NCBI GenBank assembly: GCA_002245135.1
Contig: NGBS01000331.1
Coordinates: 1-64,000 of the forward strand
DNA: 64,000 bases
Direction: 5' to 3'
From: Proteromonas lacertae
Taxonomy: Eukaryota
How positions within the stretch are numbered: the first letter of the stretch is position 1; every line of letters begins with the position of its first letter. The notes beneath the pieces were generated by a model, which made no database searches, had not been told where the DNA came from, and saw nothing but the letters and a program-made list of their open reading frames with translations. Shown in pieces: positions 28,977-55,611 of the stretch. The position numbers and the translations under genes were made by a program.

Positions 28977-29222
28977 ATAATAATGAAAGAAAGGGGGAAA
29001 TGAGTACAATTTGAAATCCCTATTATTTTTGTATTTTTTGTATTGATTTCCCCCTATGTGTTTTTTGTCCGTTTCATAATCAAATCATAATTCAAGCTTA
29101 CATTATTTTTCGCTTTTCTGTTTGAATTTAAACAAAAATAATTATTCCATTTGAATCCTCATCTTATGATGAATCTATTTATGTTGTTAGTTCAAATTAT
29201 AGAAAGTGAATGACATATAATT
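28977..29222. repeat. Left terminal inverted repeat
   Basis: Starts ATAATAATGAAAG; reverse complement of 48139-48384 with one mismatch seen. Confidence 0.96.
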
Positions 29223-29257
29223 CGAAATCAATAATCATTAATTCAAATTGAATTTAA

Positions 29258-30012
29258 TTATAATCTTCCATAAGAAAATAAATCGACTTCTTCTATTTGA
29301 TCTTCACCATAAGAAAATAAATTAACTTTTTCTGTTTGATCTTCATCTGTTTCTTCATCATCATCATCCAGATTATCAAACAACGATGCTACAGAGACTT
29401 TACTACTTACCATACTTTTCGAATTCTTGTTTTCTTCTTTTTCGCATTTTGCTAATTCTGCTTCAGATTCAGATATTTCTTCTAGATCATCATCACTATC
29501 ATTACTATAAATAATTCCAATAACATTGTTGTTGTTATCATCCATCTCGTTAGGGTAATCTTGACATTTGTCTCCATCTCCCCACTCTGTTATGTTTTCT
29601 TCAGTTAGTGACTTTAATGAGCAGTATATATAATCCAATTTTCTGTCTATCTATAAAAAAATAATATAATATATATATAAATATACAATTGACTTTGGAT
29701 TTGATGGTAAATAGTTAAAACAATATATAAAATTGGACTTGAAGTCCCTGTAGTACTGTATTCTGTCACGAGAATCGTAGATCCAAAAATGTTTTAAAAT
29801 GGCTGATCATTGTATTCATATTTGGATAGTAGCAGTTTCTTTTCCACCTAAGAATAATATAAATTAGGAATATACTTATATCTGCTTAGTTCTCTTTGTC
29901 TTTTCATGATATCATTCAAATTGTATACTACTATATCAAACTCAGGGTCATCGTGATAGTATTTAATTTTCACTCTGTAGATAATCTCTTGTTTCAAGAT
30001 TATACGTGCCAT
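29258..30012 (-). CDS. Intron-containing viral hypothetical protein with acidic tail (one frameshift)
   Basis: ATG at 30012; GT-AG introns 29875-29848 and 29686-29651; paralogue of 47080-47884; needs one single-base correction in exon 2. Confidence 0.7.
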
Positions 30013-30404
30013 AATTCTATATATAAATTAATTAAAAAAATACATTAAATACAAGTGTATTAATTATGTACTTTTTATAAAGAATGAATTGACTTTAGCT
30101 AACTATAATTTATATATACTTACTAGGGTATATACCCATCTCAATTATATCAATATCTTATTTCAGGCAATAATCTAAATCATCTTTGATTATGAAACAT
30201 ATATGAAATCTAACTATATCAATCGATTGCTCATGATATGCCATATAATAAGAAACACATCAGATTATTCATTATGTCAATGGATCATGAGATATTATTT
30301 TTTTAACAAACCTCAAACATTTGTATTACTAAACAAACAATAACTTTATTGATTAGACCCATAAAAATTTAATAATATATATAATAGCAAAAAATACAAA
30401 GAAT

Positions 30405-30899
30405 ATGCCTGACCATTTAACATATAATATGCTTAGACAACCTAACGGTGAATATGCTTTTTATATTCATAGATATAGAGACAATAGAGCACATAGATGG
30501 GTTATTCAATTTCCAATTAAAACAATGAAAATATTAAAAAGAAATAAAGTAAAGGTGTTTATATGTGGTTCACTCAGAACTAATAGAAATGATCCAGAAG
30601 TACTAGGTGATTATAGACATCATGGTGATCAATTAATGATAAACCTCAAAACCTATGGGTATGACAGAAGAGCTTCAATATTAGTAATGAATAGAAAATT
30701 AAGAAATGGAGAACATGAGTATGCAGATGGCGATTGTATTCCTCAAAAATTTAAAAAATATGTTTTTCATCATATGAGTTATCAATGGAATGGAGGGAAT
30801 TTTTATCACATACATCCAGTTGATAGAAATGTTGCTGATGGAATTAGTAGTAGTAGTAGTAGTGATAGTAGTAGTAGCAGTAGTAGTGACTCTGATTAA
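30405..30899 (+). CDS. Viral hypothetical protein, Ser/Asp tail
   Basis: Clean 164-aa ATG ORF. Confidence 0.75.
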   Translation: MPDHLTYNMLRQPNGEYAFYIHRYRDNRAHRWVIQFPIKTMKILKRNKVKVFICGSLRTNRNDPEVLGDYRHHGDQLMINLKTYGYDRRASILVMNRKLRNGEHEYADGDCIPQKFKKYVFHHMSYQWNGGNFYHIHPVDRNVADGISSSSSSDSSSSSSSDSD

Positions 30900-31007
30900 A
30901 TACTTAAAAATTCTATATATTATTATTATATATGTTTGTTTTTGTTTGATAAACATACTATTAATAGTTACTATATTTTAAATAATATCAATTATAAAAA
31001 TCACAAC

Positions 31008-31379
31008 ATGTCTTATTATGGAGGATGGCCAAAAGGGTTTAAAATTAGTAAAGACTGGAATACATATATTCCTAAATCAGTTAACAGGAGTAAATGGAGA
31101 AAGAGCTATGATTTGTATAGAGACAAAGTAAAGAATGCACTACAAAACAAAACGAAAGTTAAATTACAATATAGACAATTAATGAAAATGTATGAACGAT
31201 TATTAGCTGCTAATCCACCTAAACAAAGAGGAAGACCAAAAGGAAGTAAAGATAGAGCAAAACGTAAACCAAGACGAGCCGGGCCACGAGCCGCGCCAAA
31301 GAATGATCCACATCGTATAGTTGTGCATAATGGCAGGCATTATCAGTATGGTATTCCAGTTCCTAATATGGATAATTAA
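31008..31379 (+). CDS. Basic AT-hook protein
   Basis: PKQRGRPKGSK AT-hook core; very basic; ATG at 31008. Confidence 0.7.
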   Translation: MSYYGGWPKGFKISKDWNTYIPKSVNRSKWRKSYDLYRDKVKNALQNKTKVKLQYRQLMKMYERLLAANPPKQRGRPKGSKDRAKRKPRRAGPRAAPKNDPHRIVVHNGRHYQYGIPVPNMDN

Positions 31380-31486
31380 AGTAATTCTTTATATATTCTG
31401 TTTTTTATGTAATGTTATGTGTGTTTGTTTTTTGGTGTTTGGTACTGCTATATCCGGCGGCCACTTGACAACTTGAATTGTAATAT

Positions 31487-31557
31487 AAGTTACAACTGGC
31501 GCCAGTTGTAACTTGAATTGTGATGTATCCTACAACTGGGCCCAGTTGTAAGATACA
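31487..31557. repeat. Tandem palindromes (TACAACTGG core)
   Basis: Perfect 28-bp palindrome 31487-31514 and 20-bp palindrome 31531-31550 (extends to 31524-31557). Confidence 0.9.
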
Positions 31558-31607
31558 AGTTTAACCAAAAAAACATAATATAATATAATATAAAAAGCGA
31601 AATAAAT

Positions 31608-31844
31608 TTATATAGTCATTTTCCTTTGTTTAGTGATTTCAATAAGAGACTGAATATCCTTAAGTGTCTTATCATGTTCTAACCCTTTATTCATCATGGC
31701 ATCTATATTATTTCTAAGTTCTTCTATGTCTGTATTGTTTGGAATACAATTGTGTGCCTTTAAGTATTTGAAAAGAGCCAAAGCTATCATATACAATACA
31801 AATACGAGAACTGAAAGCAAAACAGTTATTACATCAAAGTCCAT
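31608..31844 (-). CDS. Small membrane protein
   Basis: N-terminal TM plus short coiled coil; degraded homologue at 27790-27895. Confidence 0.7.
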   Translation of the reverse strand: MDFDVITVLLSVLVFVLYMIALALFKYLKAHNCIPNNTDIEELRNNIDAMMNKGLEHDKTLKDIQSLIEITKQRKMTI

Positions 31845-31911
31845 GTGTGTTTATGAGAATCTTATATAAGAAAACAAAATTAATCAAAGTAATGTATTTA
31901 TTATCAATAAA

Positions 31912-32514
31912 CTAACTTACAAGACATTGGTTATTATTAATATATTCATCCTTAATGGATCTTGGTGATATTGGAGATAAGTCATAATCTGTGAGATTGA
32001 CATTGTCATTGTCATTTCCAAGCTTGACTTGTATTTCTTCTATTTCTTTATTACTATTATCATTAGGAGGAGGAGGAGGTAATATATTAGCTTCATGATT
32101 CATCATAATAATACTTTCTAATAATTGATGAGTTTTTTCAAAAGATGGGTTTCTTTTCTCCTTAATCTTGTTAACACACTCAAGGAACATATTAGGTGTA
32201 ATGCGCACAGTCTCATCTACATCAGAAATACCTAATCTTTGAATTAATTTCTCTTTACTCTCATCCCACCAACATCCATTTTTGAATCTATATTCCAAGT
32301 CTAATCTATACTGTTCATCGACGTATTTGAGTATATATCTGATCTCACTATAAGTTAATTCCTTTTTCTCGCCACATATGAGATTCCATAATTTAGATTT
32401 GGTTGGTGCCCTCATTTTGCCATCCTTTCTAAAGCAATTAATAAGTATTTGTTTATCAGAGTTCCAAAAGTTATATGGCACTGTTCTAAATTTGTGCTCC
32501 TGATCGTTATTCAT
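31912..32514 (-). CDS. Viral hypothetical protein
   Basis: 200-aa ORF; central part duplicated at 57322-57581. Confidence 0.75.
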   Translation of the reverse strand: MNNDQEHKFRTVPYNFWNSDKQILINCFRKDGKMRAPTKSKLWNLICGEKKELTYSEIRYILKYVDEQYRLDLEYRFKNGCWWDESKEKLIQRLGISDVDETVRITPNMFLECVNKIKEKRNPSFEKTHQLLESIIMMNHEANILPPPPPNDNSNKEIEEIQVKLGNDNDNVNLTDYDLSPISPRSIKDEYINNNQCLVS

Positions 32515-32599
32515 TTTTAAAAAATAAAAGTGTAATTAATACTAATAATGACAATATTGACATTATTAACGAATTTATTTTCAAAATAGATTTTATCTT

Positions 32600-33556
32600 A
32601 TGTTAGTTTCGAATCATCGTGTATACTACTTAAATTCTGATATGATTGTATTATCTGATTCCATGGGCGGAGGAAACAAGTATAAGAAGACATTAAAATT
32701 GCAATCATTCGATGATTATACTCATGTCAGCTTATTACATGCTGTTATACCCAATTCATTCCCAACTATACAGGAAGAAACAAATGATGAGTTTTCATTA
32801 GTATTCACATTGGGATGGAGACATGATGTTCAAGTAGATACACCAAAGTATCCAAACATCATAAAACACCTCAAAATACCAGAAGGATTCTATGATGAAA
32901 CTCAGATATTAAGTATGATTAATAATTTAGTCAAAAATATGACATATGATGTTTTTGGAATAAAAGATGATGCATATAATACTGAAGGTTCACATGTGTC
33001 TATTATACAAGGAAAAGGAGATTTATTTCGTATAGACAATTTCGATGATAATCAAACATATCATATTGAGGTAGCTAATGATATGAATATAATATACTAT
33101 CAAAAAGACCCAGTATATTGGATAGAAAAATTAGAGATCATCACCAAAGATCTTAGTTACAAAATATTAGGCATACCCAAAAACAATTACTGGTGTTGTT
33201 TTAAAGAATATATTCCATCTGAAGAACCAGAGAATCAACAAGAAATTATGGTTAAGCCATTCCCATTTACTCAATTACCATTTCGTCCTTCTTTGATATG
33301 GGTTAATTCTATATCCATTAGATTAGACATAGTGAATATTATGCAGGATTCAAATGTATTAGAAAATATACCCGTTTCAAATCCTGAGTTACCATTTATT
33401 ACATATCAGAATAATGACATATTGAATACATCAAAGAGATTCAATAATACCTATAACAATGGTATGATCACTATTCAGATTACTCAACAAAATGGCTATG
33501 AACTTAATCTTGATAATATTGAGTTTAATTTAGATATTGTTGTATTTAAAGTCTAA
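32600..33556 (+). CDS. Minor capsid (penton-like, single jelly-roll) protein
   Basis: VSLLHAVIPNSF, IPEGFY, ITIQITQQNGYELNL patterns typical of PLV/virophage mCP; lies immediately upstream of the MCP. Confidence 0.8.
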   Translation: MLVSNHRVYYLNSDMIVLSDSMGGGNKYKKTLKLQSFDDYTHVSLLHAVIPNSFPTIQEETNDEFSLVFTLGWRHDVQVDTPKYPNIIKHLKIPEGFYDETQILSMINNLVKNMTYDVFGIKDDAYNTEGSHVSIIQGKGDLFRIDNFDDNQTYHIEVANDMNIIYYQKDPVYWIEKLEIITKDLSYKILGIPKNNYWCCFKEYIPSEEPENQQEIMVKPFPFTQLPFRPSLIWVNSISIRLDIVNIMQDSNVLENIPVSNPELPFITYQNNDILNTSKRFNNTYNNGMITIQITQQNGYELNLDNIEFNLDIVVFKV

Positions 33557-33587
33557 TTTTTATATTTCTTTATTCTTTTGTTTTCTA

Positions 33588-35075
33588 ATGGCTTTATCTA
33601 TTCCAAAAGAACAGAAATATGGTGTAGATGTCCCTGTGATGCTACCCTTCTATAATTATGTGAGATTGACTCCGATGGGATCAACATCAGAATATACTCT
33701 AAGTGATAACGCGTATACAGAAGAGATTAGATGGGAGATAAGTGGAGATAATATTATCAATTTAGCTAAGTCATATATTCAATTCGATATAGATGTAGAA
33801 ACAGAACCAGTAGCAAAAGGTTCAGAAGTAGGTGCTGTTAGAGCAGATTTAAGTAAGAAACTTATAAATAAAGATAATGATTTATATCCAAGTACAATTG
33901 GAGGAATTAAAGAAGGGTTTGGCTTGGCCTCTTTTAGAATTTGTAACCAGACTGGAACAGATCTGGTCAAGCTTGATGATTCGTATGAACCATATCGTGT
34001 ATTTATGGATGAATTAGTTAGAAAGAGATGCGATATATTCTATCAAGACAATTACTATGATGGAATACAATTAGATTGAAGTAACGATGAACACAGTTAT
34101 CTTATTCAAGATGTTAATAAATGGAAAATGGATAAAGAAATGAACGGTGCATTTACTGATACTGTAGACACTGTAGAGATTTTTGATACTAGTAATAATA
34201 AAGTAACAAATGCTACTGTGTATAAGAGTAAAAAGACATTACATTTCAAATTACAGTTAGGTAAATTTTACAATACATTTGCTGCATTAAAGAGCGATGT
34301 ATTCTTTGGAGAGAGAATGTATATATGCATTCGATTCCAAACTAAAGCAAATTATGGAAATTTGAAATCATATACACCAACGAAATATTGTATTGATGAA
34401 AATGGTTATGAAGATTTAAATAATGTTATAGCATGGGATAGGAATGGTGGTATTAAAAATATGACATTTAAGAATTTTAAATTTTATGCTTATATCAACA
34501 AGGATACTCAATGCAACAATAATACCAAACAATATTGTTTATCAAAACCTATTCAATTCAATGATTTCAGATGTCATCAAATTGTTGTACCATCAGGTGG
34601 ATCTGGCATATTCAATTATTCATTCACATTGAATAGTTCCAATGGACCATTTGTTCGTTACATTATCTATAGGCCATGGATAGAATCATTAAAAAGATAT
34701 GCACATGTACCTGAAAATGCACAATTCAGATGGATGATCAATGATTTTGTATATCAGCCAGATTATACACTTATGCAATATTATGATAGCTTCATGACTG
34801 TCCGTGAATATTTCCAAGACTCATGGTTTGATATATTCAGAAAAGATAAGAAGTTCAATGACAAGTTGTTTGAGATATTGAATTTTGGCTCTAAGGATTT
34901 GGACAATATTAAGAACCAGGCAGGTAGACCTTTAGCTACTGATTTGAAAATAACCTTTGAATTTTCAACACCTGGTAAGAATGACTTTACTAATAATGAT
35001 ATATCTCATCGTTTCTATATCATCACTGGACGCATGGTCACTATTAATGGAAGTGGTATTGTAAGTGTAGTTTAA
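33588..35075 (+). CDS. Major capsid protein (double jelly-roll), one in-frame TGA at 34077
   Basis: IRWEISGDNIINLAKSYIQFDIDV N-terminal MCP pattern; two ORFs in the same frame total ~495 codons; sits between mCP and ATPase. Confidence 0.8.
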
Positions 35076-35142
35076 AAATAATCATAATCATAATATCAAT
35101 AACGGCTATATTTCTTATAATTATGTTTTTGTTATTTTTGTT

Positions 35143-35985
35143 ATGAGTAAAGTTAATTTAGAAAAAATAAACAACATAGTCATAAATCCTGTTGAGACAG
35201 TAGTCAAAGGATGTGGAAAACGCTCCAAAGATAGTGTCCTTGGATATGACTATTTTCAGGAGCCTTTCTGCAACATATTTATTTTAGCTAAGAAAAACAG
35301 TGGTAAGACTACACTTATATTTAATATGATCCAACACTTGTTAAAAAAGGGATATGACCAAGTAGTGTATTTTTTCGTTGCAACTATATCCAAGGATATT
35401 ATATATGAGAAAATCACTGATATGCTCAAGTATAACCAAATTGAGTACCATTGCTATGATTCAGTAGTGAATGAAGATAGAGTGAATATATTGGATGCAG
35501 TATTAGATAATATCAAAGATATAGACAAAGATAATTATGATTACCCAGAGAATATATTTATATTCGATGATATATCATTTGATTTAAGAAATAAATCCGT
35601 TTCTAAATTACTTAAGTCAAACCGTCATTACAAGTCAAAAGTAATTATATCAAGTCAATATGTCACTGATATTACTCCATCAGTTCGTTTACAGCTTGAT
35701 TACTGTTTGGTATTCAAAAACCTGGTAGGTATAAGAATGTATGCATTGATATGGATCGATTTCGATGTTTTCAAATCATATTATGATTATGCAACCAAAC
35801 AGAGTAATCACTCATTTTTATATATCGATTTATATAATCATGAATTTAGAGTGAATTTTGATAGTAGAATAAGAGATAATAGTAATAATAGCTATAATCA
35901 CAATAATAAATATGATCACCTCATTTCCTATAGCAGCGATGATGAGTCCACTGATTCATCAAGTTATCCCAGCGATTCGGAATAA
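35143..35985 (+). CDS. A32/FtsK-HerA-type genome packaging ATPase
   Basis: Walker A AKKNSGKTT, Walker B FIFDD, RHY..IISSQY. Confidence 0.92.
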   Translation: MSKVNLEKINNIVINPVETVVKGCGKRSKDSVLGYDYFQEPFCNIFILAKKNSGKTTLIFNMIQHLLKKGYDQVVYFFVATISKDIIYEKITDMLKYNQIEYHCYDSVVNEDRVNILDAVLDNIKDIDKDNYDYPENIFIFDDISFDLRNKSVSKLLKSNRHYKSKVIISSQYVTDITPSVRLQLDYCLVFKNLVGIRMYALIWIDFDVFKSYYDYATKQSNHSFLYIDLYNHEFRVNFDSRIRDNSNNSYNHNNKYDHLISYSSDDESTDSSSYPSDSE

Positions 35986-36040
35986 TAATAATCCCCATAT
36001 TGTCACTAATATAATTTTTTTGTTTATTTTGCTATATTTT

Positions 36041-36913
36041 ATGTTTGGCCGTCCTATTAAAAAACAAGCTGTATCAACAGATCTAACACCTGTCACGAGG
36101 GCACTGACATCGATTACAAGCAATTTGGGAGAAAAAGTTGGAGATGCTAAATCGATTAGAGAAATGTTGGTCGATATCAAGAATAGTGGTACAGGAGGAT
36201 CATCTGGATCAGGTGGTGGTATTGATAGTGCAACTAGCGAGAAAATTGATGGAATTGTGAATGTCATTGGAAAGACCAAATTAGAGAGTTGGGAAAATAA
36301 CATATATTATATGTTATCTATTTTGTATTCTACAATTTATGATGATGCTAATTCAATTGCTTATAATGTCAATAGTATAATGTCCTATATAGGATATCGA
36401 AGTGAATATCAAGATAGTTCATGGAAAATGGAGAATCGTATAAAATGGAGTTCTATGGGTGAAAATAACATGATATTAAAATCTGTAGATGGTCAATTAG
36501 AAATTGTTCAAGCAAGACAAGTTTTACCAAACTGTTATTGCTTTGTAAGATATGCAGCTTTTCAAACATATTTGCAAATAGAAATACTAAATCCTGTTAG
36601 AATAATAACAAGCGAACTAATAATTAATTCAATCTAAACTCCAGATGTAGAAATAATTTTAAGCAAATATTTAGGTTATACAAATAATGTACCAAGAATA
36701 GATATTTTTTTTGAGTCATTAAGTGGACATCATCAAGTATGCTTTTTTGAAATCACTCGTGATATATGTTGTTTCAGTATGAAAAATCCTACTACAGAAC
36801 ATAATGTGGATAACTTTGAAGGTAATTGTATTCTAATCCCACAAAAAATAATATTTCCATATGGTAATAATGTTATAATTCATAAAGATGATGCATTTGA
36901 TTTTAATATATGA
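36041..36913 (+). CDS. Putative fibre/spike-like virion protein, in-frame TAA at 36635
   Basis: Helical N-terminus, Gly linker, beta-rich C-terminus. Frame stays open 92 codons past the TAA. Same position after the ATPase as 55646-56495. Function is inferred. Confidence 0.5.
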
Positions 36914-36920
36914 ATTATAA

Positions 36921-37622
36921 TTAATTCTTCTTGTTTCTCTTGTATTGTTGGTTTTGATTATCACTCTCAGTTCTTCTTTTCATCGGAGCAGGTGTTGTTG
37001 GTACTGGAATAATATCATAATCTGCAGGTTGTGTATACATATTCTCCAAATCTATATCATTTACATCCTGATTCTCAGCACACTGATCCTCATCATCCTC
37101 CTTCTCCTTCTCAAGTTTTTGCTCAAATTTCTTGATACTACTATGCACTTCAAATTTTGGGATAATAGTGTATTTTTCTTTATCCTTCTTATCTAATACA
37201 GTTATCTGTCTAATTCTCAAATCACACTGACACTCATAAAATAAATAACTTGGAGGATCTTTAATCTTGTTTAACCATGCCCAGAATCTGACAGTGTTAT
37301 TATCGTTGTCTTCAGAAAATATCACTTGGAAGCCACATTTCTTATAGTCTTTAACCATATTTGAGTCATCTGTATACTTGATGGCATAATCCACAAACAT
37401 TTTTTTCAAAGGCTCCTTTACATCTTGATAATAATTTTTAATAGGTCTTCTGTTCTTAAATAAGAACCTTCCTGGAGTAAAACTCATGACATAGTACTTT
37501 GCATCTTCAATCTTTTCTGTATTTGGTTCAGCTTCATTACACCATCCTTTTACAGTTAAATAAGTAACATCTCTATCATCTAATGTGATAAAATTAGATC
37601 CATTATTGATATTTGAACTCAT
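36921..37622 (-). CDS. Hypothetical protein, possibly ssDNA-binding (OB-like)
   Basis: Size, architecture and weak N-terminal similarity to 60948-61721; basic C-terminus. Confidence 0.5.
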   Translation of the reverse strand: MSSNINNGSNFITLDDRDVTYLTVKGWCNEAEPNTEKIEDAKYYVMSFTPGRFLFKNRRPIKNYYQDVKEPLKKMFVDYAIKYTDDSNMVKDYKKCGFQVIFSEDNDNNTVRFWAWLNKIKDPPSYLFYECQCDLRIRQITVLDKKDKEKYTIIPKFEVHSSIKKFEQKLEKEKEDDEDQCAENQDVNDIDLENMYTQPADYDIIPVPTTPAPMKRRTESDNQNQQYKRNKKN

Positions 37623-37805
37623 ACCGCCAAAATGAATATTATATATCCGTTTCACAAAAAAGATTTATGTGGTTTGAATATATTTGATACATTTGGAGCG
37701 GTTATACAAATTACCGCGCATACAATGAACATGTGTAAATTGTATAGTTTGATTACACAAGCTTATTTGATAGATTCCATTTTCATCATTTCATTACACT
37801 CAAGT

Positions 37806-38045
37806 ATGTCAGACAACCAAAAAGATACTTCAGATAAACAAGAAAAATATAAGGACTTAGATTATTGTGATTACATGCCATTCGAAGAAGCTGTAAACAG
37901 ATTCTGGGAGCGTATGGAGCAATTAGACCCTAATGGGAGAGATACCTTAGATAAAGAGTATAATCGATTTTTAAAGAATTTTAATCAAGAAAGAGAAGAA
38001 ATAATGAGAAGTAATTATAATAATTATAATAATAGTAACCATTAA
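37806..38045 (+). CDS. Small viral hypothetical protein
   Basis: Charged coding-like part of ORF 37632-38045 from MSDNQK. Confidence 0.55.
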   Translation: MSDNQKDTSDKQEKYKDLDYCDYMPFEEAVNRFWERMEQLDPNGRDTLDKEYNRFLKNFNQEREEIMRSNYNNYNNSNH

Positions 38046-38057
38046 TTAATTAATTAA

Positions 38058-38702
38058 TTACGGTCTATAGTATTCTCTTTTTGATATGACTCCCACAAAT
38101 TTACAAAGACAATGATACACGCTCCATATTAACCGCTCATACTCATCTAACTCCCTATCAAAATGCACCAACTCATAGTGATTTCCTTCTTTTTCATTAT
38201 TACGTATACGTTCCCATAGGCATATTAATACATTATGAACTCCAACTTTTACTGCAGAGTACGGAACAGTATCTTTCAAACATAATTTTATAGCATCATC
38301 GACTCTATTACTTACCTCTATACAATCTTCTACACTGAGATTAAAAAATCTTGTTTGAATTCTATAATGAGTTAGAGATTCTTTAAAAATTTCTAAAATA
38401 CGCTGAATTTGAGTTATATTGAATTTCACACGTGGTAAACTCTCTTCACCAATTGGTAATGCTAAACCAGCATGTCCCTCACAATCACATATTGCTCTCT
38501 CGCTATGCTCCAAAACATCTAAATTAGCTTTATATGTATGAACATCCATTTTCTTTACATCTTTCTCATTGAATAGACATACTGGTTTTACAGCATCTTC
38601 AATCGGCAATGCTCTTTCTAATTCAGTGAAATCTAGAGGTTTAACAATACTTTTAGGTGAGTCAGTATGTTGTAATGGTGGTACAGTGTTCATGATAAGC
38701 AA
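38058..38702 (-). CDS. Viral hypothetical protein
   Basis: 214-aa ORF with normal composition. Confidence 0.7.
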   Translation of the reverse strand: MLIMNTVPPLQHTDSPKSIVKPLDFTELERALPIEDAVKPVCLFNEKDVKKMDVHTYKANLDVLEHSERAICDCEGHAGLALPIGEESLPRVKFNITQIQRILEIFKESLTHYRIQTRFFNLSVEDCIEVSNRVDDAIKLCLKDTVPYSAVKVGVHNVLICLWERIRNNEKEGNHYELVHFDRELDEYERLIWSVYHCLCKFVGVISKREYYRP

Positions 38703-38752
38703 AATAAAATTAATTAAAAAAAAATAAAGTAATTACGTTTAATCACTAACAC

Positions 38753-39301
38753 TTAAAGATCTTCTAAATCTTCTTCTTTATCAAGGTTTTTTGAATCGTC
38801 ACATTGCATGTTTGGCTTGATCAAATGCTTATGTTTTTTTGATGGTACTAATTCATCTAATGATTCAGATATAGCATTTAATAATTTTCTCTTGATGATG
38901 TGTATCTTATTATCATTGTCATTCACAATTTCAGGAATATCATATACATCATACCATTGATCATTATCGCTATCATAATCATCCTGCTCCATATTCGATT
39001 CAGCGTCATTTTCATCTTCACTATATGCAATGAAATCCTTTAAATTACCATTACTATCAACATCACTTGCATTTGGATCATCTTCAGGATCATAGTCATC
39101 TGATTCATCGTCAGTACATTCTGCTTCTCCATACAAGTACTTATACACATTATCTAAATAATCATTCTCTCTTTTTCTTTTTTGACTGAATCGCATTTTC
39201 TTATCTTCTAAATTTTCTTTCTTTTGGTCTTGATCATTTGATTTACCCATTATGCCTATAATATGTATGGTATTATGGTTGTTTGAATCCATAGAACACA
39301 A
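38753..39301 (-). CDS. Acidic hypothetical protein with NLS-like motif
   Basis: D/E-rich; QKRKR; start uncertain. Confidence 0.65.
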   Translation of the reverse strand: MCSMDSNNHNTIHIIGIMGKSNDQDQKKENLEDKKMRFSQKRKRENDYLDNVYKYLYGEAECTDDESDDYDPEDDPNASDVDSNGNLKDFIAYSEDENDAESNMEQDDYDSDNDQWYDVYDIPEIVNDNDNKIHIIKRKLLNAISESLDELVPSKKHKHLIKPNMQCDDSKNLDKEEDLEDL

Positions 39302-39360
39302 TATACAAAAAATAATAAAATGAAACGAATATATTTCAAATATTGATATTATGTTAATTA

Positions 39361-39720
39361 TTAACCTATTAATGTCATATTTTGTCTAGCATATTGCACA
39401 GGAGTTAAATTCTGTGCTGGGTATGATTGTTGTTGTTGTATTGGTGTATGATTTCTCTCCATTAACACTTCATCTGCCAATTTATTTAATATAGCTTGTG
39501 CTTCCTTGAATGTCCATGGATTAATACTCTTTAACATCTGTTGTGCCTCTGGAGGTAATGTTTCGAGTGTTTTCAATACTTGAGTTTGTTGATCATTTTG
39601 TACCGATTGTTGCGATTGTTGATTTGGTTGTTGTTGTGGTAGATATTGAGGGTGTTGACCATCTTGTTGATATGCAACACCACTATTAAAAGTTATTTGA
39701 GGTATTGGACCAGCTGACAT
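39361..39720 (-). CDS. Gln-rich hypothetical protein
   Basis: ORF from MSAGP. Confidence 0.65.
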   Translation of the reverse strand: MSAGPIPQITFNSGVAYQQDGQHPQYLPQQQPNQQSQQSVQNDQQTQVLKTLETLPPEAQQMLKSINPWTFKEAQAILNKLADEVLMERNHTPIQQQQSYPAQNLTPVQYARQNMTLIG

Positions 39721-39794
39721 ATTAAAAACGGCTATAATGGCAATATTGATATTATTGACTATATTATCACTCAAAAATATAATTATTTCAAATT

Positions 39795-40290
39795 ATGGTT
39801 AAAAGAAGTTCAAAAGCGAAATATCGTAAGTATATCATAGGTAAAGGCAAGTTCTGGGATGGAGTAAAGAATTTCTTTAAGAAAACAAAAATTTTATCAA
39901 CAGCAGCTAGCTTAATCCCAGGTGTAGGTCCAGCCTTAGGTAATGTTGTATCCAATGTAGGATATGGTAGAAAACGTAGAAGAAGAGGAGGACAAGCAGA
40001 ATGGAATTATGATGGTGGTATAAGTGGTGGTACCAAAGGAAGTAAAAAGTGTAATTAGTGGTGGTCCAGGCAGTATGCCCTATTTAAAAAATGGCGGAAT
40101 GGCTAATCCATTTGCTGTAAAGATGTTAGGTGGTCCAAGCACTATTCCAAAAAAGAATTGGACAAAAGGTGGTCCAAGTACTATACCGAAATTTTTGTTA
40201 GCAAAGAAAAAGACTGGTTCTGGTAAAAGACGTAAAAGTAGTAATAGTCTCGATAATCGATATATTGACAATAAGATTAGAGTTTTCTAG
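39795..40290 (+). CDS. Basic core-protein precursor(s) with repeated GG sites (two overlapping ORFs or one frameshifted gene)
   Basis: IIGKG-KFWDGVKNFFKK amphipathic helix, RKRRRRGG, ISGG, MLGG, GGPSTIPK x2. Confidence 0.7.
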
Positions 40291-40348
40291 TCTAATTTTA
40301 TTTTTTCTATTTTAATCGTATTTCTTTATTTTCATTCGAAATAACATA

Positions 40349-40636
40349 ATGCCAAAAGGTGGTAGAAGACGTAGATGCGTTTATGGAAGAAGGGGTGGTT
40401 CATTTTGGGGTAAGTTAAAAAATTGGGGTTCCAAAGCATTTAACTGGGCAAAGGATCATAAAATAGCATCCAAAATAGCTAGGGAATTTGGAAAGAACGA
40501 TATCGCAGATGGATTATCAACAATGGGATTTGGTCGTAGTAGGTCAGGAAGAGGTAGATTACCATTCAATGGAGGTGGGAGTAATCAACAAGCATTATTG
40601 AATGCATATTTAAAATCAAAGGTGGCTCGAATGTAA
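40349..40636 (+). CDS. Adenovirus pVI-like membrane-active core protein
   Basis: GG-SFWGKLKNWGSKAFNW resembles the mature pVI N-terminal amphipathic helix; Arg/Gly-rich. Confidence 0.65.
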   Translation: MPKGGRRRRCVYGRRGGSFWGKLKNWGSKAFNWAKDHKIASKIAREFGKNDIADGLSTMGFGRSRSGRGRLPFNGGGSNQQALLNAYLKSKVARM

Positions 40637-40727
40637 ACTTGACTTTTAATAATGCTAATAATACTTATATTATTATTTTCATTGTTATTTTTGTTAATTT
40701 TATTTTTTCATAACATAGAAATAAAAA

Positions 40728-41342
40728 ATGAGTGATACTGAATCAACTGAATATGTGAGTGATGATAGTTCTACTGATGTGTCTGATAGTGAAGTAGAGT
40801 CAATAAATGAAAATGATTCCAAGATGTCCAAACCAAAAATCACAGAAGCTGAACCAAGTGATGCTATGATCAATGAATTACTATCATAATTCTCTCCAAA
40901 GGATATATACAACATATTACAGAATGATGGATCATCATCTCATAAAAATTCAAAAAAAGGTAAAAAACACTCCCATAAATCCAGATCAAGATCAAGATCA
41001 CATGAGAGATCCAAAAGAAGATCTAGTAAGAAACAAAAATCAAATGCTTTAGACGAGCCTAAGTCCAAACGTGGTGGCGGTAGAAAAAATAGCAAAAAGG
41101 ATAGGGACTCATCATTACCTCCTCCTAGTCGTATGACAAAAGCTGAATTACAAATAGCTTTGAAAGAAACTAGAGATCAATTAGGCAAATATATGAAGAA
41201 ATTAGAAAAGAGTTCAAATCCAAAGAAAGAGAAAATAGAGAAAGTAAAAGAACCAGAACCAGAAGAAGATAAACCATTAGGTAATGATATTGCAGGTAGA
41301 GAAATACAAGGCGAGCCTATCGAGCCTGTTTATGTTCAATAA
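40728..41342 (+). CDS. Acidic/RS-rich basic protein, in-frame TAA at 40887
   Basis: ATG at 40728 is in frame with ORF 41133-41342; contains an SRSRSRSH..RR tract. Confidence 0.65.
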
Positions 41343-41408
41343 TATTAATAATACTTATATTACACATTATTATTATAATTAAATTGTTTTTTTATTTTCT
41401 ATTAAGTA

Positions 41409-44400
41409 ATATTTGGTGCTACTCCTACAACAACAAATTCGACGAGTGCGCCGGCCACTTCAAATATTCAAGCATCGAATGTTACAACTGCCCCCAGTTA
41501 TAATAATACAACTTCAATACCTACAACTGGTGCAGGTTATAATAATCAAAGTTCAAATGCTGCAAGTTACGCCGGAATGATGGCAGGTGCTGCTGCCGCC
41601 ACGGGGCAGCAGCCCAGCCAACATTCCAAAATAACACACAACCAATACAACAACAACAACAACAACAACAACAAAGATATAATATAGATGCTATTATGGA
41701 AAAAATACAACCATTTTTGATTAATCAATATGATTATGAATCAGTTAAGCAAATGGTTATGAATAATACAAAACAAGATTTAGAAAATGTATGTAAAAAT
41801 GTAGGATTGCCATTAGATATTATATCAAAGTATTCCAGCTATGGTGGAACAATAGATCAATTAGTAGATTACTTACATTATTTCAAATATCAATGTGGTC
41901 GTAGTGTTCCAGAAGCACGATCAGATGTGTGTAATTTAATTATTGGTATGGGTAGTGAATATGTTTTATGGCCAAAAGTAAATTATGGTTTATTTGGTAT
42001 GTCTTTAGATGGATATCCAAAGACAGGTTCAGGAAGAAGAAAACATGTTCATTTCAAACATAAGAAACATCACAGAAGAAATAAACTCAAATTAGAGAGT
42101 ATCCCACGGAGGCATCTCTTGGCTACTAAGAAATTAGGTGGTAATAGTGGTATTATACCATTAAGAGTGGGTCAAAGTGTTGGTCCTAATGAGCATGTCA
42201 TTATTACTAATCCAAGACAACAAATGTATGATGCTGCTAGTGCTGCTTATATTGGAACATCACAATTACAGCCAAGTCAAATACCAGATTATATTCAACC
42301 ATATATACCAAAAGAAACTGTAGGATATGATTATAATTGGAATTATGATAAATTATTTAGTCCAGGTTTGAATAGACAAGCTCGAAAAGAAGTTCAATAT
42401 GCATTAACTAATAATTATGCTTCTTTGCTGCCTAACAATTATCATATTAATTTTTATGATATGCTAGATCGTGAACATAAAACAGGACATTTAAGAGGAA
42501 CATTCCCATTAGCAACATTAGATACATCTAATCCAAGAAGCTATCTTTTGAACTGGCCTGAATATGTTACAGAAGCAGATGTTCAGGCATATGATAATGG
42601 AATGAATAGAGTTACAAATCCTTTGTTACAAAAATTTCCTAAATTACAAAATTATAAATCATTACAAGAGATTATAGAAAAGAATCCTCAATTAGCAGCC
42701 TATAAAAATTATAGACAAGATTGGTTGACCTCAACTTGGGACAAATTAACAGGTAATGATAAAGATGCAATAGAATATTATAACAAACTATTATTACAGC
42801 AGGAGTATTTGCAAAATGAATTAGTTGATGAGTAAGTAAGATCAATCAATATTCAGATCCATATAATTTTGATCCAAATCGAGCTGAAAAAGTAAAAGAA
42901 TATATTGCATTGAATAATCAAAAGGCACAAAGATATATGGATGATCAAGAGATATTAGAAAGATCAAAATTTTATAGATGGGCATTAGATCCAAAAAATC
43001 AGGAACTGATGAATAGCGCTATAGATATGGGTGAAGGACAGTGTACATTAATTAATGAAGATAAATATAGAGAGCTGAATGAAATAGCATCACAGAATAG
43101 TAGAGATTTCATTAACTTTGATTATAACAGAGAGAAGTTAGGTCACTCACTTCCTCAAGAGTGGGTGAATGCAGATAATAAACAAAAATATGAAATAGCT
43201 ATTGGTTTAGTGAAAACTGCTTGTAGTTCATAGTCACAATTTGAAAATTCACAGTTTCAAAAAGCACTTGATTCATTACGTGAATCTGATTTTATGGGTT
43301 TTGCTGGTAATTTGTTCCTGTGTGTAGAGAATGTATTTAGGATATTTCCACAAATATACTATACAATGAAGTCATATTTGGTAGGTGGAGTTACTCCTCA
43401 AATGTTTGAAGTAGATCATGCAATGAAATATGTTCGTGCAATAGTAATGACATGTTTGGCTTATTGGTTATGGAAAAAATCCAAACTACCAACATCAGGG
43501 TTCTTGTATGTAATGTGGTACTTCATTTTCGACTACTATGAAATAATTCGTATGCTGTCAGGTGGTAGATTACCTGCTATCACTGACTTGTATTATGGTA
43601 ATTCAGAAAAAGTTAAGTCAATGTTACCTGAAGCAATTCAAAAATCATGGTTACCTGTAGACTTGTTGTATAACTTTGGTGTTTCATTTATGTTCAATAC
43701 TCATCCATATGTTCGATACTTATTTCAATTAGTTCCATTCTTCTACAAATTTTCTAATATTGGAAATATAGATGCAAAAAATGTAGGTGATACATTAAAA
43801 ACAGCAGCAACTGTAGCTGCAGCTGCAAATGGAGGTGATGCAACAACTGCTGCAGCAGCAGTTAAAGGTATCAGTGAATTATCAAAAGCTATGCCATCAA
43901 TGGCAAAAACTGCTGTTGCAGCTGATCCAACAGGTACATTACAAACTGTTGCAGGTATAGGAACAGTATTCAGTGCATTGACTGCTTGTTTTGGTTTGCT
44001 AGATGCAGGTGGTTTATTAAACTGGTTAAAACCAACACCATATCAACACAAGAATGCAATCAAAATGGATAACTACGTGAAACGTTCACAACAAACAATT
44101 CCAAGTTCACTCACTAATTTTGGTAGAGCAGTGAGTAATTTAGATCAAGCAAAACAACTCAGTGAAGCTATGAGTTACTTTGGAATAGGTAATGGAAATA
44201 ATAAAAAAGTAAAGAAATTAATTTCACGTAGGAAAGTTTTGTATAACAGTATCACTTCAGATGCCTTATCGAACTTTGATATAGAGTTAATTGTGAAAAA
44301 TGAGTTCAATAATTTTCATGGAAAGTTCATGGGAGTGTTCTGCTGGGACGAGCTTGTACTTCTTATACCCAAAAAGAAGAATCAATGGGGAATCATAATC

Positions 44401-44757
44401 AATACACTCACCACACAAGCTAGCCCTGATTCTATAGGTCATTGGGTGGCCTTAGTAGTTGACAATATCAAGAAGCAATTCCTGTACTATGATTCATTTG
44501 GTGAAGATCCTCAACACTTGGAAGAATTTAAAAAAAAATTGAAAAAATTAAAGAAGTATCATAATGAAAAGTATGAACTTAAAATCAATGGAGTACAGAA
44601 TCAAAATTCAAATACTGCTAACTGTGGTTTTTTTGCTATTAATTTTTTGAAAAATATTTTAAGAGATCAGTGTAGTTTCAAAAAGGCTACTGACTATAAT
44701 ACAATAGTGGGTGAAGCAAAAATTAGGTTAATGAAAAAACAATTTGGATTAATATAA
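41409..44757 (+). CDS. Reconstructed ~1100-aa virion protein ending in an adenain/Ulp1-like (clan CE) cysteine protease
   Basis: GHWVAL..YYDSFG..QNQNSNTANCGFF catalytic H-D-Q-C in 43294-44757. Upstream ORFs join via single-base shifts at ~41615 and ~42832 and an in-frame TAG at 43231. Confidence 0.75.
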
Positions 44758-44805
44758 TATATAATATATAATTATTACTTAATTATTTTTTTTTTCTGTT
44801 TTTCT

Positions 44806-45213
44806 TTATGTGTGGTAAAATATTGTATGAGTTTCAATATATTCTATCATCTCTGTATCCACATGAGTACATTTGAAGAATATTGGCATCTTACCATTAA
44901 AGCGGCTTTGTGGCATTCTAATGATTACTTTTTTCATTGTTGGTGTGTATGTAACTTTGGGTCTATCTCTATTTCCTAAGTCACAAGGACCTACAAACAC
45001 TAATATCAAACGTTGACTCATAATCATGTTAATCATTTTGTGTGTTAACTCAAAATACCATTGATATATTGGTTTTCGATGATAAAAAAATATAAGGAAT
45101 TGTAGGCTATACAAATCCAAGTATATGTCTGGACCACTTAAATGATATTTCTTTGTTACCTTGGATTCAAGTTCTGGTAATTTATATTCAATCTGTGGTG
45201 GTAGTGTAAGCAT
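44806..45213 (-). CDS. Viral hypothetical protein
   Basis: ORF from ATG 45213 (MLTLPPQ). Confidence 0.65.
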   Translation of the reverse strand: MLTLPPQIEYKLPELESKVTKKYHLSGPDIYLDLYSLQFLIFFYHRKPIYQWYFELTHKMINMIMSQRLILVFVGPCDLGNRDRPKVTYTPTMKKVIIRMPQSRFNGKMPIFFKCTHVDTEMIEYIETHTIFYHT

Positions 45214-45276
45214 ATATAAAAAATAGAATATACTATATGTATATGTATAATAAAATATTTTAAAATAAAAGAAATT

Positions 45277-45371
45277 AAAAAAAATGGGATTACTAATAGT
45301 CTGTGCTAGGAATCGAACCACTAATGCCAGCTGCATTACTCTTTTTTCCTTGCACAGTCTATCAGATCCCA
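45277..45371 (-). ncRNA. Putative Pol III hairpin RNA (VA-RNA-like)
   Basis: 87-nt stem-loop with a consensus B-box GGTTCGATTCC, a G-U pair only on the minus strand, and a T8 run directly after. Confidence 0.6.
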
Positions 45372-45378
45372 ATTAAAT

Positions 45379-45457
45379 AAAAAAAAGGGCATTTAGATAT
45401 ACCGTGCCAGGATGATTCAAGCCGAATTTCAATGGCGCAATATTAAACAACACATCC
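45379..45457 (-). ncRNA. Second putative small hairpin RNA
   Basis: Imperfect stem with G-U pairs on the minus strand, degenerate B-box GGCTTGAATCA, T8 run. Confidence 0.4.
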
Positions 45458-45615
45458 AAGTAGAAATTATTAAACTTCCATAAATTCCTTGTGAAATTAA
45501 TTTAATAAATAAATAATTATAAATTAGAAACGCAGCCCTCATCGTAGCTAGTCTATCCAATGCCCAATAATAAAAAACAACATATACAATATATAGCATA
45601 ATAAAAATTTATTCG

Positions 45616-46918
45616 TTACAATATTGATTTGTCTCCCTTCTTTCTCTTGGGTCTCTCCAGTATTTTTCTAAACCATGTGGTTGGTGCATCATCTTTTCTC
45701 ACTAACTGCAACTCATAGTGTTTGAATCGAATTAATGAAAAACCTTGAATGTCATTCCCATTGATATCACCTAAATTGTATGAATATCGATTTTTCTTGA
45801 TTATCTTATATACATTGTCTGACCAGTATATGTTCTTATCCATTTTACGTCTTCTCTCTTTGAATCTCACCAAATCACCTACTTCGAAATTTTGACCAGT
45901 ATGATCTAATTTTTCATAATTCTTTAAGTTGTAGTTAATTGATTTTTGTAATATTTGTTTTTGTAATTCTGGACTATGGAATACCTCATTTGGGGTATAT
46001 CCTTTAATTCCTGGTAATGGCTTGTTGTTATAGTCATCTATCACTTCCTGTATTATACTATCTAGTTTCAATTTATAATTCATATCTGGTATAATATGCT
46101 TATCATTGTGATCAATATCTGCCATATATGTAGGTGCATCATATCCCAGATCCACCAAGTGTTTGTACAACAGTCTTTTTATCATCACTCACTGATCTAT
46201 CCAATAATGACTCTATTTTATGCTCTGAACCATCTTTTTGAAAATATGATATTCCTTCAGCATCACATAACTTCTTGATATTTGAAAAACTAGCATCAGC
46301 ATCTGATAGGATACTTACCACATTTTTATGTGTTTTGTTTCCATAGGCATCTGTTTCATAATACCACTTCTGAAATGCATCCAATGTAATATCACCATAT
46401 TTATTAGGCATAAATATTGCCCATACTTTTCTTGAATTCATTTCGATAAAATACAAATGTTCCATATCAGGTAAGAAAAACACTATATCCATTTGGAAGT
46501 ACCCTGGCTTTTTGATAGTTGCGAATGGATTATTTTTTTTATATTTGAAATCGACAATTTGTTTTCCAGGTTGTCTCCTTAAGTATTCACGTACTACATC
46601 TGGTGGTGGAGCTATATCATTCATACTAGACAAATGTTGTGTCATTTTGACAAATTCATTTTCATTAAGGTAATAATATTTTTTATATAGTTCATCTAAG
46701 CGTGATCGATATTGGGCAATTTGGTTTGACATTTGGTCTTCATACGAAGCCTCTCTTGTTGGATGTGTAATATTCGGTGCTCCATGGTTAATATATGTTG
46801 CAAGTGATAAGTTACCATTTGTAGGTAACGGTTTGACAGGATATGGGTTCTGGTTGCTATATGAGCTGTATAAATGTGGATCGTAACTATTAGTGCTAAA
46901 CATATGGTCCAAAAACAA
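45616..46918 (-). CDS. Polinton-type rve (retroviral-like) integrase, frameshift near 46188
   Basis: FQMDIVF, SRKVW, ILSDADASF, LDRSV, YNNKP..G.TPNEV, FEVGDLVR, WSDNVYKI. Confidence 0.9.
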
Positions 46919-47079
46919 AAAACAAAAGTAATAATGAAATTCATTTCATTATGATTATTATCTAAATTAATAGAGTTATATGTCTTTATAGCAACATTTA
47001 AAAAAATATATATCCGTTTCATATATACATATAACATTTGTTCATCGTTCAACATTATTTTCCTTTCAATTCACTTATT

Positions 47080-47884
47080 ATGAGCAACTGGAAGATACTA
47101 TACAAAAACAGCTTCATTAATGATCCAAATCCGAGCATATATAAAATTTTATGTGAGAATTTTAAGACGATTACAGAACATGAGAAAGATTTGCAACGTT
47201 ATAGGTATATTATATTATTATATGTCTATAGCTGGAATGGTAACTTCAGTATAAGGCGTTTCAGAACATGGTACAAAAGATTCACAGAAATTGAAAAGAT
47301 TGATGCTCGACATGAAAGATTAAAAATGTCCAGAGTGTTGATGTCTGTCCTGCTATGTAATATCATGTATAAAGAGGATCTGGACAAAAGCATCGTATAT
47401 CCATTTAATATATATTTCAATTTTGAATCAATAGTATGATCGTATGCTTGACCATGCAATGGAGGACATGGTGGAACTGACTTGTATGTATATCATACAT
47501 TTCGGTGACAACGATTTAGCAAAATGCGAAAAAGAAGAAAACAAGAATTCGAAAGGAGATATAGTTTACAGAAGTACTGCTGAAAGTATAGTAAGTAGTA
47601 AAGTCTCTGTAGCACCGTTGTTTGATAATCTGGATGATGATGATTATAATGATGATGATGATGACAACAACAAGTTGTTAAAGGTGGTATCCACAAAAAG
47701 AAAGTGCAGTACATCTAAAACTCCAAGATTCAAAAGAAAGAAAATAAATCAAAAAAACATTTCAACCAAAAACCAAAAACAAGAAGATAGTACTACAGAG
47801 GAAGAAGATGATGATGATGATAATAACTTCTCACAATATATAGTTGATGATGATGAGGAGCCAGAGTACCAAAATGATTATTAA
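47080..47884 (+). CDS. Intron-containing viral hypothetical protein, acidic tail with NLS
   Basis: GT-AG introns 47205-47231 and 47395-47434 give a continuous frame; intron positions match the paralogue at 29258-30012. Confidence 0.8.
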
Positions 47885-48056
47885 TCTCTGGTCCTAATTG
47901 GTTCAAATGATAGATTGTGTTTGTGTGGGAGTGTTGTTTTCATAATTTACTTAATTAATTAGCATTATAACAAGTCTTATAAGAAATATCAATATTAGAA
48001 AAATAGATGCGTTTCGAGATTTGACTTGAACTCCATTTTTTTTTTTTTTTTATTAC

Positions 48057-48108
48057 ATAGGATGGTCACCATATGGTGTCATATCACACCATATGTTGAC
48101 CATCCTAT
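48057..48108. repeat. 52-bp hairpin next to the right TIR
   Basis: 23-bp arms with one mismatch and a 6-nt loop, preceded by a long T run. Confidence 0.85.
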
Positions 48109-48138
48109 TGAGATTGTTTTTATTGAATTATTTTTTGA

Positions 48139-48384
48139 AATTATATGTCATTCACTTTCTATAATTTGAACTAACAACATAAATAGATTCATCATAAGAT
48201 GAGGATTCAAATGGAATAATTATTTTTGTTTAAATTCAAACAGAAAAGCGAAAAATAATGTAAGCTTGAATTATGATTTGATTATGAAACGGACAAAAAA
48301 CACATAGGGGGAAATCAATACAAAAAATACAAAAATAATAGGGGTTTCAAATTGTACTCATTTCCCCCTTTCTTTCATTATTAT
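48139..48384. repeat. Right terminal inverted repeat
   Basis: Ends CTTTCATTATTAT, followed by TSD AGCTTG. Confidence 0.96.
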
Positions 48385-48515
48385 AGCTTGAACATGGTAT
48401 TGTTGATATAATTTCACAGATTTTCTTTAAATTTCTAAAGTATATCCCATATGATGCAAACCATATATTTGTAATACTTTCGTGAAAAAATGGAAGAAAG
48501 TGCAACATTGTGTGA

Positions 48516-49121
48516 TATTGCGCGCCAATATGAAAAATGCGCCTATATGAAATTAATGATTTTTATCAAAAACTGATATCTCCATAGTTCTTACAATGAC
48601 CTAAACTATATGAATATACCCTTATTTAGTGATATAAGCTCCTTTGTATGAATCTCATATTATGAAATTTAAAGTCAATTATCTAATGAATTTCTTTTTT
48701 TTTTTTCATGTTCTTTTTATGTAGAACACAAAAGCAAATAAACATAAACAAAATATATGAATATTATTGTGAATTAAATACCCCATCAGTAGTTATACTA
48801 AAAAAAAGAAAAAAAGATCAAGCCTCATTCAAGCCATTTTCTATTTTTTTAATATTCATTAATAAATAGTTGTATTTAATATCTATAATAATCTATGGAT
48901 ATATAATATTATTTATATGATTTATGAAAAAATTACAAAAAAAAAATTCTTTAGATAAATGACTTTAAATTTCATAATATGAGATTCATACAAAGGAGCT
49001 TATATCACTAAATAAGGGTATATTCATATAGTTTAGGTCATTGTAAGAACTATGGAGATATCAGTTTTTGATAAAAATCATTAATTTCATATAGGCGCAT
49101 TTTTCATATTGGCGCGCAATA
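48516..49121. mobile_element. Foldback MITE with ~190-bp TIRs
   Basis: TATTGCGCGCC... / ...GGCGCGCAATA; flanked by TGTGA on both sides (5-bp TSD). Confidence 0.85.
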
Positions 49122-49249
49122 TGTGACATTCTGTTTTCAAAAAAGTAAATTTCTATAATGAATCTCTGCGTAATTATTTTTATCTCCATGTTTGAATTTG
49201 TAGTTTATATTTAAATATTGACTTATCAATTATATAACTAAATCGCTGA

Positions 49250-50593: not shown

Positions 50594-50796
50594 TAAATGG
50601 GACTATGGGACATTGTCACAGAGTTCTAACGAGTGTTCTAGGAGTCCGTCCCCTTCTATATTCAGAGTTGACCTTTACGGGAGCTTCATCGATGCAATCG
50701 ATGAAGGCCCCGTAAAAGTCAACTCTGAATCTAGAATGGGACGGACTCCTAGAACACTCGTTAGAACTCTGTGACAATGTCCCATAGTCCCATTTA
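50594..50796. repeat. 203-bp near-perfect palindrome, GC-richer repeat family
   Basis: 100-bp arms and a 3-nt GCA loop; arm sequence recurs at ~54887-54935; adjacent AGGTAT-type tandem repeat at 50440-50510. Confidence 0.9.
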
Positions 50797-51622: not shown

Positions 51623-51868
51623 AGCAAACTAAATACATATTTAGCTAATATAGACTAAAATACATTAGTTGAAATGATTAGAACAACTTAATGTTGATCA
51701 TAAGACATATAAAAAGAAAAAAGAAAATATTGAATCAAGCCTCACTCAAGCCTATATTTTACATTTCTCTTTTATATAGAAAGATGTAATAATTATTATA
51801 TTCTAATCATTTTAGCTAATGTATTTTAGTCTATATTTGCTAAAAATGCATATAGTTTGCTTCAAAAA
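51616..51868. mobile_element. Small foldback element
   Basis: ~68-bp imperfect IRs (TTTTTGAAGCAAACTA...); internal TCAAGCCTCA.TCAAGCC motif shared with 48516-49121. Confidence 0.7.
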
Positions 51869-55200: not shown

Positions 55201-55611
55201 ATGAAATCAATTGATGATACAAACAAAGATAATTATGAGTATGCAGAACATATTATAATATTTGATGATCTTAGTTTAGAGTTGAAAACAGCTAATATCA
55301 TACCAGTATTAATGAAAGAAAATAGACATTTAAAATCAAAAATTATAATTAGTAGTCAATATATTACTGATATAGTACCTTCAGCAAGATCACAAGTAGA
55401 TTATTGTTTAACATTTTATGGATTGAGTAATAGAAATTTGTTTGACTTATACAACTCATTGAATATATGGATACCTGAATATGAAACATTTAAAGAGTTA
55501 TATTTAGCTGTTACTAAGCCACAATATAACTTCTTATATATTGATAATGTTAAAAAAGTGTTTAGAGCTAACTTCAATATATTGATTGAAGACCATTCTG
55601 AAGTTTCTTGA
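55201..55611 (+). pseudogene. C-terminal half of an A32-type packaging ATPase
   Basis: IIFDD, NRHLKSKIIISSQY; clearly homologous to 35143-35985; Walker A is missing. Confidence 0.88.

Follow-up and report, generated by a model that had tools for sequence, protein, structure and literature searches.

Our preferred reading, which we consider probable, is that two small genes (A and B) of a relic Polinton-like element in the window (the whole 64,000-nucleotide stretch of DNA analysed) represent a free-standing, often repeated virophage capsid-tail module, processed by the clan CE protease of the element into peptides predicted to breach membranes and to condense DNA. By profile comparison, the modules of the window are homologous to the tails of Sputnik-type virophage capsid proteins (MCPs), and the closest proven kin of the two genes is this capsid tail, not adenovirus pVI. 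Judged from their sequences, the products of genes A and B look like protease-processed core/entry precursors.

Predicted core-precursor genes A and B

Three short plus-strand frames cover positions 39795-40636 and amount to two genes, with the following features (↓ marks a cut or a predicted cut):

39795..40058, plus strand: gene A, 5' part (ORF1, 87 aa in frame), with a basic leader, the module and an Arg tract; module HMM E 1e-12
39846..39965, plus strand: predicted released peptide of gene A, 40 aa, from IIGK↓G to NVGY↓G; cuts predicted from the family pattern and mavirus
40024..40290, plus strand: gene A, 3' part (ORF2, next frame), with a GG-repeat stretch, a basic tract and a C-terminal tail common to P0007
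40349..40636, plus strand: gene B (ORF3, 95 aa, intact), with an Arg-rich leader, the module, a basic linker, (F/Y)NGG and a conserved C-terminal tail
40364..40399, plus strand: Arg-rich leader of gene B between two GG sites, Arg/His-rich in relatives, with an unconserved Cys
40400..40531, plus strand: predicted released peptide of gene B, 44 aa, from RRGG↓S to TMGF↓G, with a Trp amphipathic helix at its start; cuts predicted likewise

ORF1 and ORF2 were taken as one frameshifted gene, with the break between 39987 and 40033, because both are spanned by P0007, a 165-aa protein encoded in one frame that matches ORF1 at 79% over 63 residues and ORF2 at 38% over 89. A programmed frameshift was considered and rejected, given an RNA folding z of 0.06, the single frame of P0007 and several other breaks in the element. 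The predicted peptide of gene A contains an additional consensus-like site, IPGV↓G.

The initial annotation of this region had described two small basic proteins and a third segment of short peptides separated by GG. All the motifs that it quoted were found where it had placed them and the two proteins are basic (pI 10.8 and 11.7), whereas the third segment proved to be the latter half of the frameshifted gene A and no protein in its own right. Its GG dipeptides are enriched (4 vs 1.3 in shuffles, p = 0.02), which was not the case in ORF1 (p = 0.44) or ORF3 (p = 0.23). One of the four GG sites is kept in P0007, the sole relative found, and three of the four are followed by Pro, a residue that occupies P1' in none of the 86 GG front sites of the family and that Ulp-type proteases are described as refusing at this position in the passages covered of PMC11653089. 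On these counts the GG string was rejected as a conserved polyprotein, and it looks like a local amplification.

All six candidates were relatives of ORF3 (6/6), and the GG before the helix, the G-F-G after it and the (F/Y)NGG were kept in every one of them. Scans for the genomic surroundings of the closest relatives yielded no loci. ORF3 ends in Met and gene A in Phe. An atlas search with ORF3 returned only unnamed clusters with low recognition, and no match was obtained in a phage collection.

The Polinton-like element and its other genes

The two genes lie within an element in which the following features were recognized:

28977..48384: whole Polinton-like element, 19,408 bp, with TIRs of ~265 bp and a 6-bp TSD (AGCTTG)
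33588..35075, plus strand: putative double-jelly-roll MCP gene, 495 codons, in-frame stop at 34077, no module tail at its end
35143..35985, plus strand: P-loop ATPase gene, A32-type by likeness to a paralogue at 55201
44191..44757, plus strand: C-terminal clan CE cysteine protease domain of ORF 43294-44757
45616..46918, minus strand: integrase-like gene in two frames, resembling the rve-bearing ORF 59752-60879

It carries the hallmarks of a Polinton-like element (Preplasmiviricota), namely TIRs and a TSD together with genes for a putative double-jelly-roll MCP, a packaging ATPase, a clan CE protease and an integrase. Classification as a strict Polinton was rejected, as protein-primed PolB was not found inside the element: between the TIRs there was no PolB motif and no match to a neighbouring pPolB N-terminal part. 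Virophage (Lavidaviridae) status was also rejected, the capsid lacking a cleaved tail and the 495-aa protein yielding no Sputnik_MCP Pfam match; the module tail was absent both from this protein and from its relatives (five full-length, of 469-484 aa, and one fragment). The identification of 33588-35075 as a double-jelly-roll MCP is provisional, resting on the low-confidence model of one relative, P0093 (pLDDT 45), whose top fold matches listed were double-jelly-roll capsid proteins headed by Sputnik, mavirus and a MELD-virus protein. The protease domain, located 3.6 kb downstream of the two small core genes, matched Peptidase_C48 (E 1.1e-7) and Peptidase_C5 (E 6.1e-5) in Pfam, and its best PDB match was ASFV pS273R (E 0.0036); His, Asp, Gln and Cys are all present.

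The element is considered decayed because several of its genes are broken, and since gene A is frameshifted and the capsid gene stopped, the copy at 28977-48384 is most likely a relic that by itself no longer forms particles. An alternative genetic code was rejected as the source of the broken frames: the long ORFs stop at TAA (33), TGA (6) and TAG (4), and all three are found among the internal stops. The flanks of the element (23% GC, many glycosyltransferase genes) and their apparent 25-27-nt introns point to a protist as the likely host genome.

Virion genes and an integrase, but no detectable replicase, were observed in 28977-48384, and the element may therefore be non-autonomous, or rely on an unrecognised replicase. 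On the plus strand, the protease is perhaps the C-terminal end of one long broken frame of ~1,100 codons (41400-44757), with a YFGI↓G site and a Lys-rich stretch upstream of the protease domain and a His/Lys tract at 41696-42835 bordered by KTGS↓G and KLGG↓N; this frame possibly encodes a self-releasing protease on a core polyprotein. The neighbour gene at 40728-41342 (plus strand), with an acidic N-terminus, a Ser/Arg/Lys-rich middle, an RGG↓G site and a stop at 40887, is a possible third core protein.

The module family

Searching 1.84 billion proteins with a profile built on ORF3 and related sequences gave 78 representatives, from which P0068 was removed (a spurious repeat, by eye) and to which P0003 and P0008 were added, giving a family of 79 proteins with 157 copies of the module. 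The module, of ~44 aa, is laid out as a Gly site, a helix, K-x-x-x-x-x-S, one or two more helices, G[YLF]G and an Arg tract, with a median front-to-rear site distance of 44 residues. For one member, P0060, a fold of three helices was predicted (pLDDT 65), and the family members scanned had no Pfam match. When a module HMM built without ORF1 (ORF3 being its own seed) was run against 818 frames, taken from the window and from five loci, only ORF1 (E 1e-12) and ORF3 were recovered in the window; genes A and B are thus paralogues.

The multi-module subfamily formed by P0016, P0019, P0021, P0030, P0035, P0036, P0048 and P0083 shows a strongly conserved 14-residue C-terminal tail, which follows a GG site and has Lys/Arg-Phe as its last residues, and which is a candidate protease cofactor or capsid-binding strand.

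The initial annotation had placed an amphipathic helix right after the Gly site of each small protein. This was borne out for ORF3 (18-mer moment 0.52, p = 0.04) and for a 14-mer of ORF1 (moment 0.69, shuffle p = 0.005), but not for the ORF1 18-mer (p = 0.07). Among 10,070 18-mers from 37 long ORFs of the window, the helices stand at the 96.6th (ORF1) and 98.7th (ORF3) percentiles, and 57% of 142 modules beat their own shuffles at p < 0.05. The amphipathicity is real and moderate.

Pattern of the predicted cleavage sites

Gly was present at P2 of the front site in 142 of 145 modules. The 142 sites, taken from profile columns and followed by a hydrophobic residue in 121 cases, were divided into GG↓X (n = 82), GX↓G (n = 53), both (n = 4) and neither (n = 3, with 33.5 expected). 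One or other form was hence found in 139/142 modules, and in 72/74 when the first module per protein was taken, against 80/362 in a shuffled-protein control, although these statistics are inflated by related sequences. The rear site read GX↓G in 153 of 156 modules, with Tyr (114), Leu (24) or Phe (13) at P1; the rear G[YF]G may instead cap a helix.

At P4 of the front site, R/K predominated (83 of 142), while M/I/L accounted for 21 and a relaxed set including N/Q for 45. The adenain-type rule proposed at the outset, (M/L/I)xGG-x or (M/L/I)xGx-G, thus survives in its glycine positions only, and strict adenain specificity was rejected for the M/I/L count at P4; in the window, IIGK↓G fits (M/I/L)xGx↓G and RRGG↓S, with Arg at P4, does not. 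Conservation in relatives, which had been named as a test of the sites, was observed for those flanking the modules but not for the GG string of ORF2. The front-site pattern is the dual rule described, in the passages covered of these papers, for adenain (xGG↓X/xGX↓G, PMC4246237) and, without a strict P4, for the mavirus protease (GG↓X/GX↓G, PMC6048507).

Relationship with virophage capsid tails

A scan of IMG/VR with module-derived patterns gave 14 distinct loci, L006 being a duplicate of L002, and L012 and L013 carrying an identical capsid fragment. The module was the C-terminal tail of a Pfam-confirmed Sputnik-type MCP in 12 of the 14, a proportion that is biased and not a true frequency, because the loci were found by module-derived patterns. 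In the two other loci it was a small separate gene, and in L002 two such genes adjoin a Peptidase_C5 gene, as in the window. A profile of 11 tails matched the ORF3 family with a probability of 94.6 (E 7e-8) and ORF1 with a probability of 96.2 (E 3e-9), and in L003 the tail begins at the end of the mature Sputnik chain. The capsid gene of L012 (8168-10438) and L013 (3558-5828) is in two ORFs with a gap of ~370 bp, identical in both contigs, and possibly carries an intron.

The best PDB match of a 66-protein profile was the mavirus capsid tail, a weak one (E 0.034, and E 0.67 in another run), and mavirus was not retrieved by the virophage-tail profile at E up to 10. The cuts in the mavirus tail have been mapped by mass spectrometry at 516/517, 567/568 and 580/581 (PMC6048507), and the GG, GYG and second GG of the profile align with these three positions (4-residue chain offset, hand count). 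According to the passages covered of the same paper, cleavage of the corresponding sites in mavirus was obtained in vitro, the first fragment is predicted to form an amphipathic, possibly membrane-rupturing helix and the basic fragments to bind DNA.

The virophage MCP tail (mavirus MCPC1-C2, Sputnik-type) and the window have in common the module sequence with its GG↓X/GX↓G front and GY↓G rear, the basic tract, the predicted amphipathic helix and a partner clan CE protease. The window differs from virophages in that the module is a separate small gene with two paralogues, the capsid is tail-less and the element is Polinton-like.

Comparison with adenovirus pVI and alternative interpretations

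The two proteins were originally likened to adenovirus pVI. With the 50-residue ORF3 module, pVI topped the PDB matches at a non-significant E of 0.45, in an ungapped alignment of 41 residues with pVI 46-86 (12 identities by hand count), and three of five matches were pVI; other scores of ORF3 against pVI were weaker, with E up to 3.2 (2.1 in one run). The match begins at pVI residue 46, and the pVI cut lies after residue 33. The window resembles pVI/pX in its xGG↓X/xGX↓G site logic and in the amphipathic helix behind a Gly site, and pX/mu in the Arg/His leader between GG sites, an architecture to which we liken that of gene B and which we take to make it mu-like in build. In contrast to pVI, the proteins have 95-165 aa (vs 250), mostly R/K at P4, no Cys-bearing 11-residue cofactor at the C-terminus and no significant profile match. 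They are pVI-like in design, possibly in sequence, and not in their cofactor and P4 features.

The proposal that the genes are true pVI/pX orthologues, belonging to a system of adenovirus type that has strict adenain sites and a cofactor like pVIc, draws on that PDB match and on the 31 of 79 family proteins that end in Phe/Tyr (background 6%), many of which carry this residue on a short extension behind a Gly site, where pVIc lies in adenovirus. However, pVI was lost from the PDB searches with broader profiles (E up to 10) and with ORF1, and no match was listed for ORF3 or its family to the Pfam models MCPVI and Adeno_PX, which we take to represent the pVI and pX families; MCPVI was found in 0/3 virophage records. 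The motif GGRRRRCV, likened in the initial annotation to the pVIc cofactor, is at the wrong end of the protein, and its Cys is kept in one of six ORF3 relatives, the near-identical P0001, the others reading as Arg/His tracts. The likeness is attributed to chance, because pVIc lies at the C-terminus and its Cys is strictly conserved (PMC4246237, passages covered); a Cys occurs within the last four positions in only 3 of 79 family proteins. The Phe/Tyr-ending tail, though Cys-free, is a better cofactor candidate, and orthology with pVI/pX in the above sense is quite improbable. Lower still, to the point of being barely credible, we place basic, protamine-like proteins that stay uncut and use their Gly motifs as flexible linkers or to cap helices: a Gly content of 12-17% and the unenriched GG of ORF1 and ORF3 would suit them, but linkers would give no reason for an either-or rule kept at a constant spacing from the helix, and mavirus is cut at equivalent positions.

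A stronger competitor, although a rather unlikely one, is that the processed helical peptide serves inside the particle as scaffold or cement, holding on to capsomers and anchoring the DNA, and plays no part at membranes. A scaffolding role has been proposed for the mavirus tail, whose fragments were undetected in virions (PMC6048507, passages covered). A structural core protein would also suit the presence of up to six modules per protein between Arg tracts, and many repeats are His/Lys-rich instead of Trp-rich. Against this, both helices of the window are cationic and aromatic and in the top 4% of its 18-mers by hydrophobic moment, family members have weak matches to antimicrobial-peptide families (E 0.01-0.09), and a covalent strain mechanism is impossible here because the capsid relatives of the element are without any tail. 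Scaffold and membrane roles are not mutually exclusive.

In the preferred reading of a protease-released capsid-tail module, the basic precursors A and B, likely packaged in the particle core, would attach to DNA and to the inside of the capsid as the particle assembles, and the packaged clan CE protease would cut at GG↓X and GX↓G on both sides of the helix. The Arg-rich peptides would stay on the DNA and condense it, and at uncoating the amphipathic peptide of 40-44 residues would insert into the vacuole membrane and breach the host membrane. The original suggestion of an adenovirus-like maturation and entry module is probably right as to maturation and entry, because of the site rule and the module match to processed virophage capsid tails, with an encoded protease and conserved sites alongside; its pVIc analogue, GG polyprotein and strict adenain rule fell away.

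Significance and known systems

Small membrane-active core genes have been proposed as adintovirus Cupiennin, MELD-virus 'VI' and adomavirus LO6 ('Macc' class), the latter cleaved in virions and proposed to be a pVI-pX fusion (PMC8502044, 10.1101/341131, 10.1101/2024.03.25.586562), so the general idea is already in print. As far as the passages covered of these papers go, these are, like the window proteins, small core proteins of Polinton-type virion modules for which membrane activity is predicted; their labels rest on HHpred/BLAST resemblance, they are set beside the window family by description only, and no link to the virophage capsid tail is made there. In the mainly open literature searched, as far as the passages covered extend, no published statement was found of homology between the virophage capsid tail and free-standing core genes of Polinton-like elements (including PMC11161782, 10.1101/2023.08.22.554363, 10.64898/2026.10.13.758929 and 10.1101/2025.10.09.676808).

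Small core genes of Polinton-like viruses have so far been labelled by loose resemblance only, and the link to virophage tails transfers experimentally mapped cut sites to them and defines exact peptides. It also shows a gene fusion or fission between a capsid and a core/entry protein across two virus classes, provides a profile that can annotate overlooked genes of 60-250 aa and puts the module forward as a concrete source from which adenovirus pVI could have arisen. A broader and tentative idea, which we hold possible yet doubtful, is that one ancient protease-released helix and Arg-tract module was the common entry/DNA-release device of the Polinton-virophage-adenovirus lineage, free-standing or up to sixfold in Polinton-like viruses, capsid-fused in virophages and, in adenovirus, still present as the lytic N-terminal part of pVI, with the Cys-free, Phe-ending tail as the forerunner of pVIc.

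Other features of the window

Just outside the left TIR, at 27793-28461, short pieces resembling 31685-31777 and the protease end (44620-44684) are debris from an older insertion. A second Polinton-like element or remnant occupies 55201-64000, with an ATPase fragment, an rve-type integrase (59752-60879) and, from 61883 and running off the end of the window, a probable pPolB N-terminal part (judged by eye); it has a 275-bp stretch in common with 32101-32374. A near-perfect palindrome of 18.9 kb, with glycosyltransferase and TylF methyltransferase genes, extends over 16-18915, and smaller palindromes are located at 48515-49122, 50594-50796 and 51616-51868.
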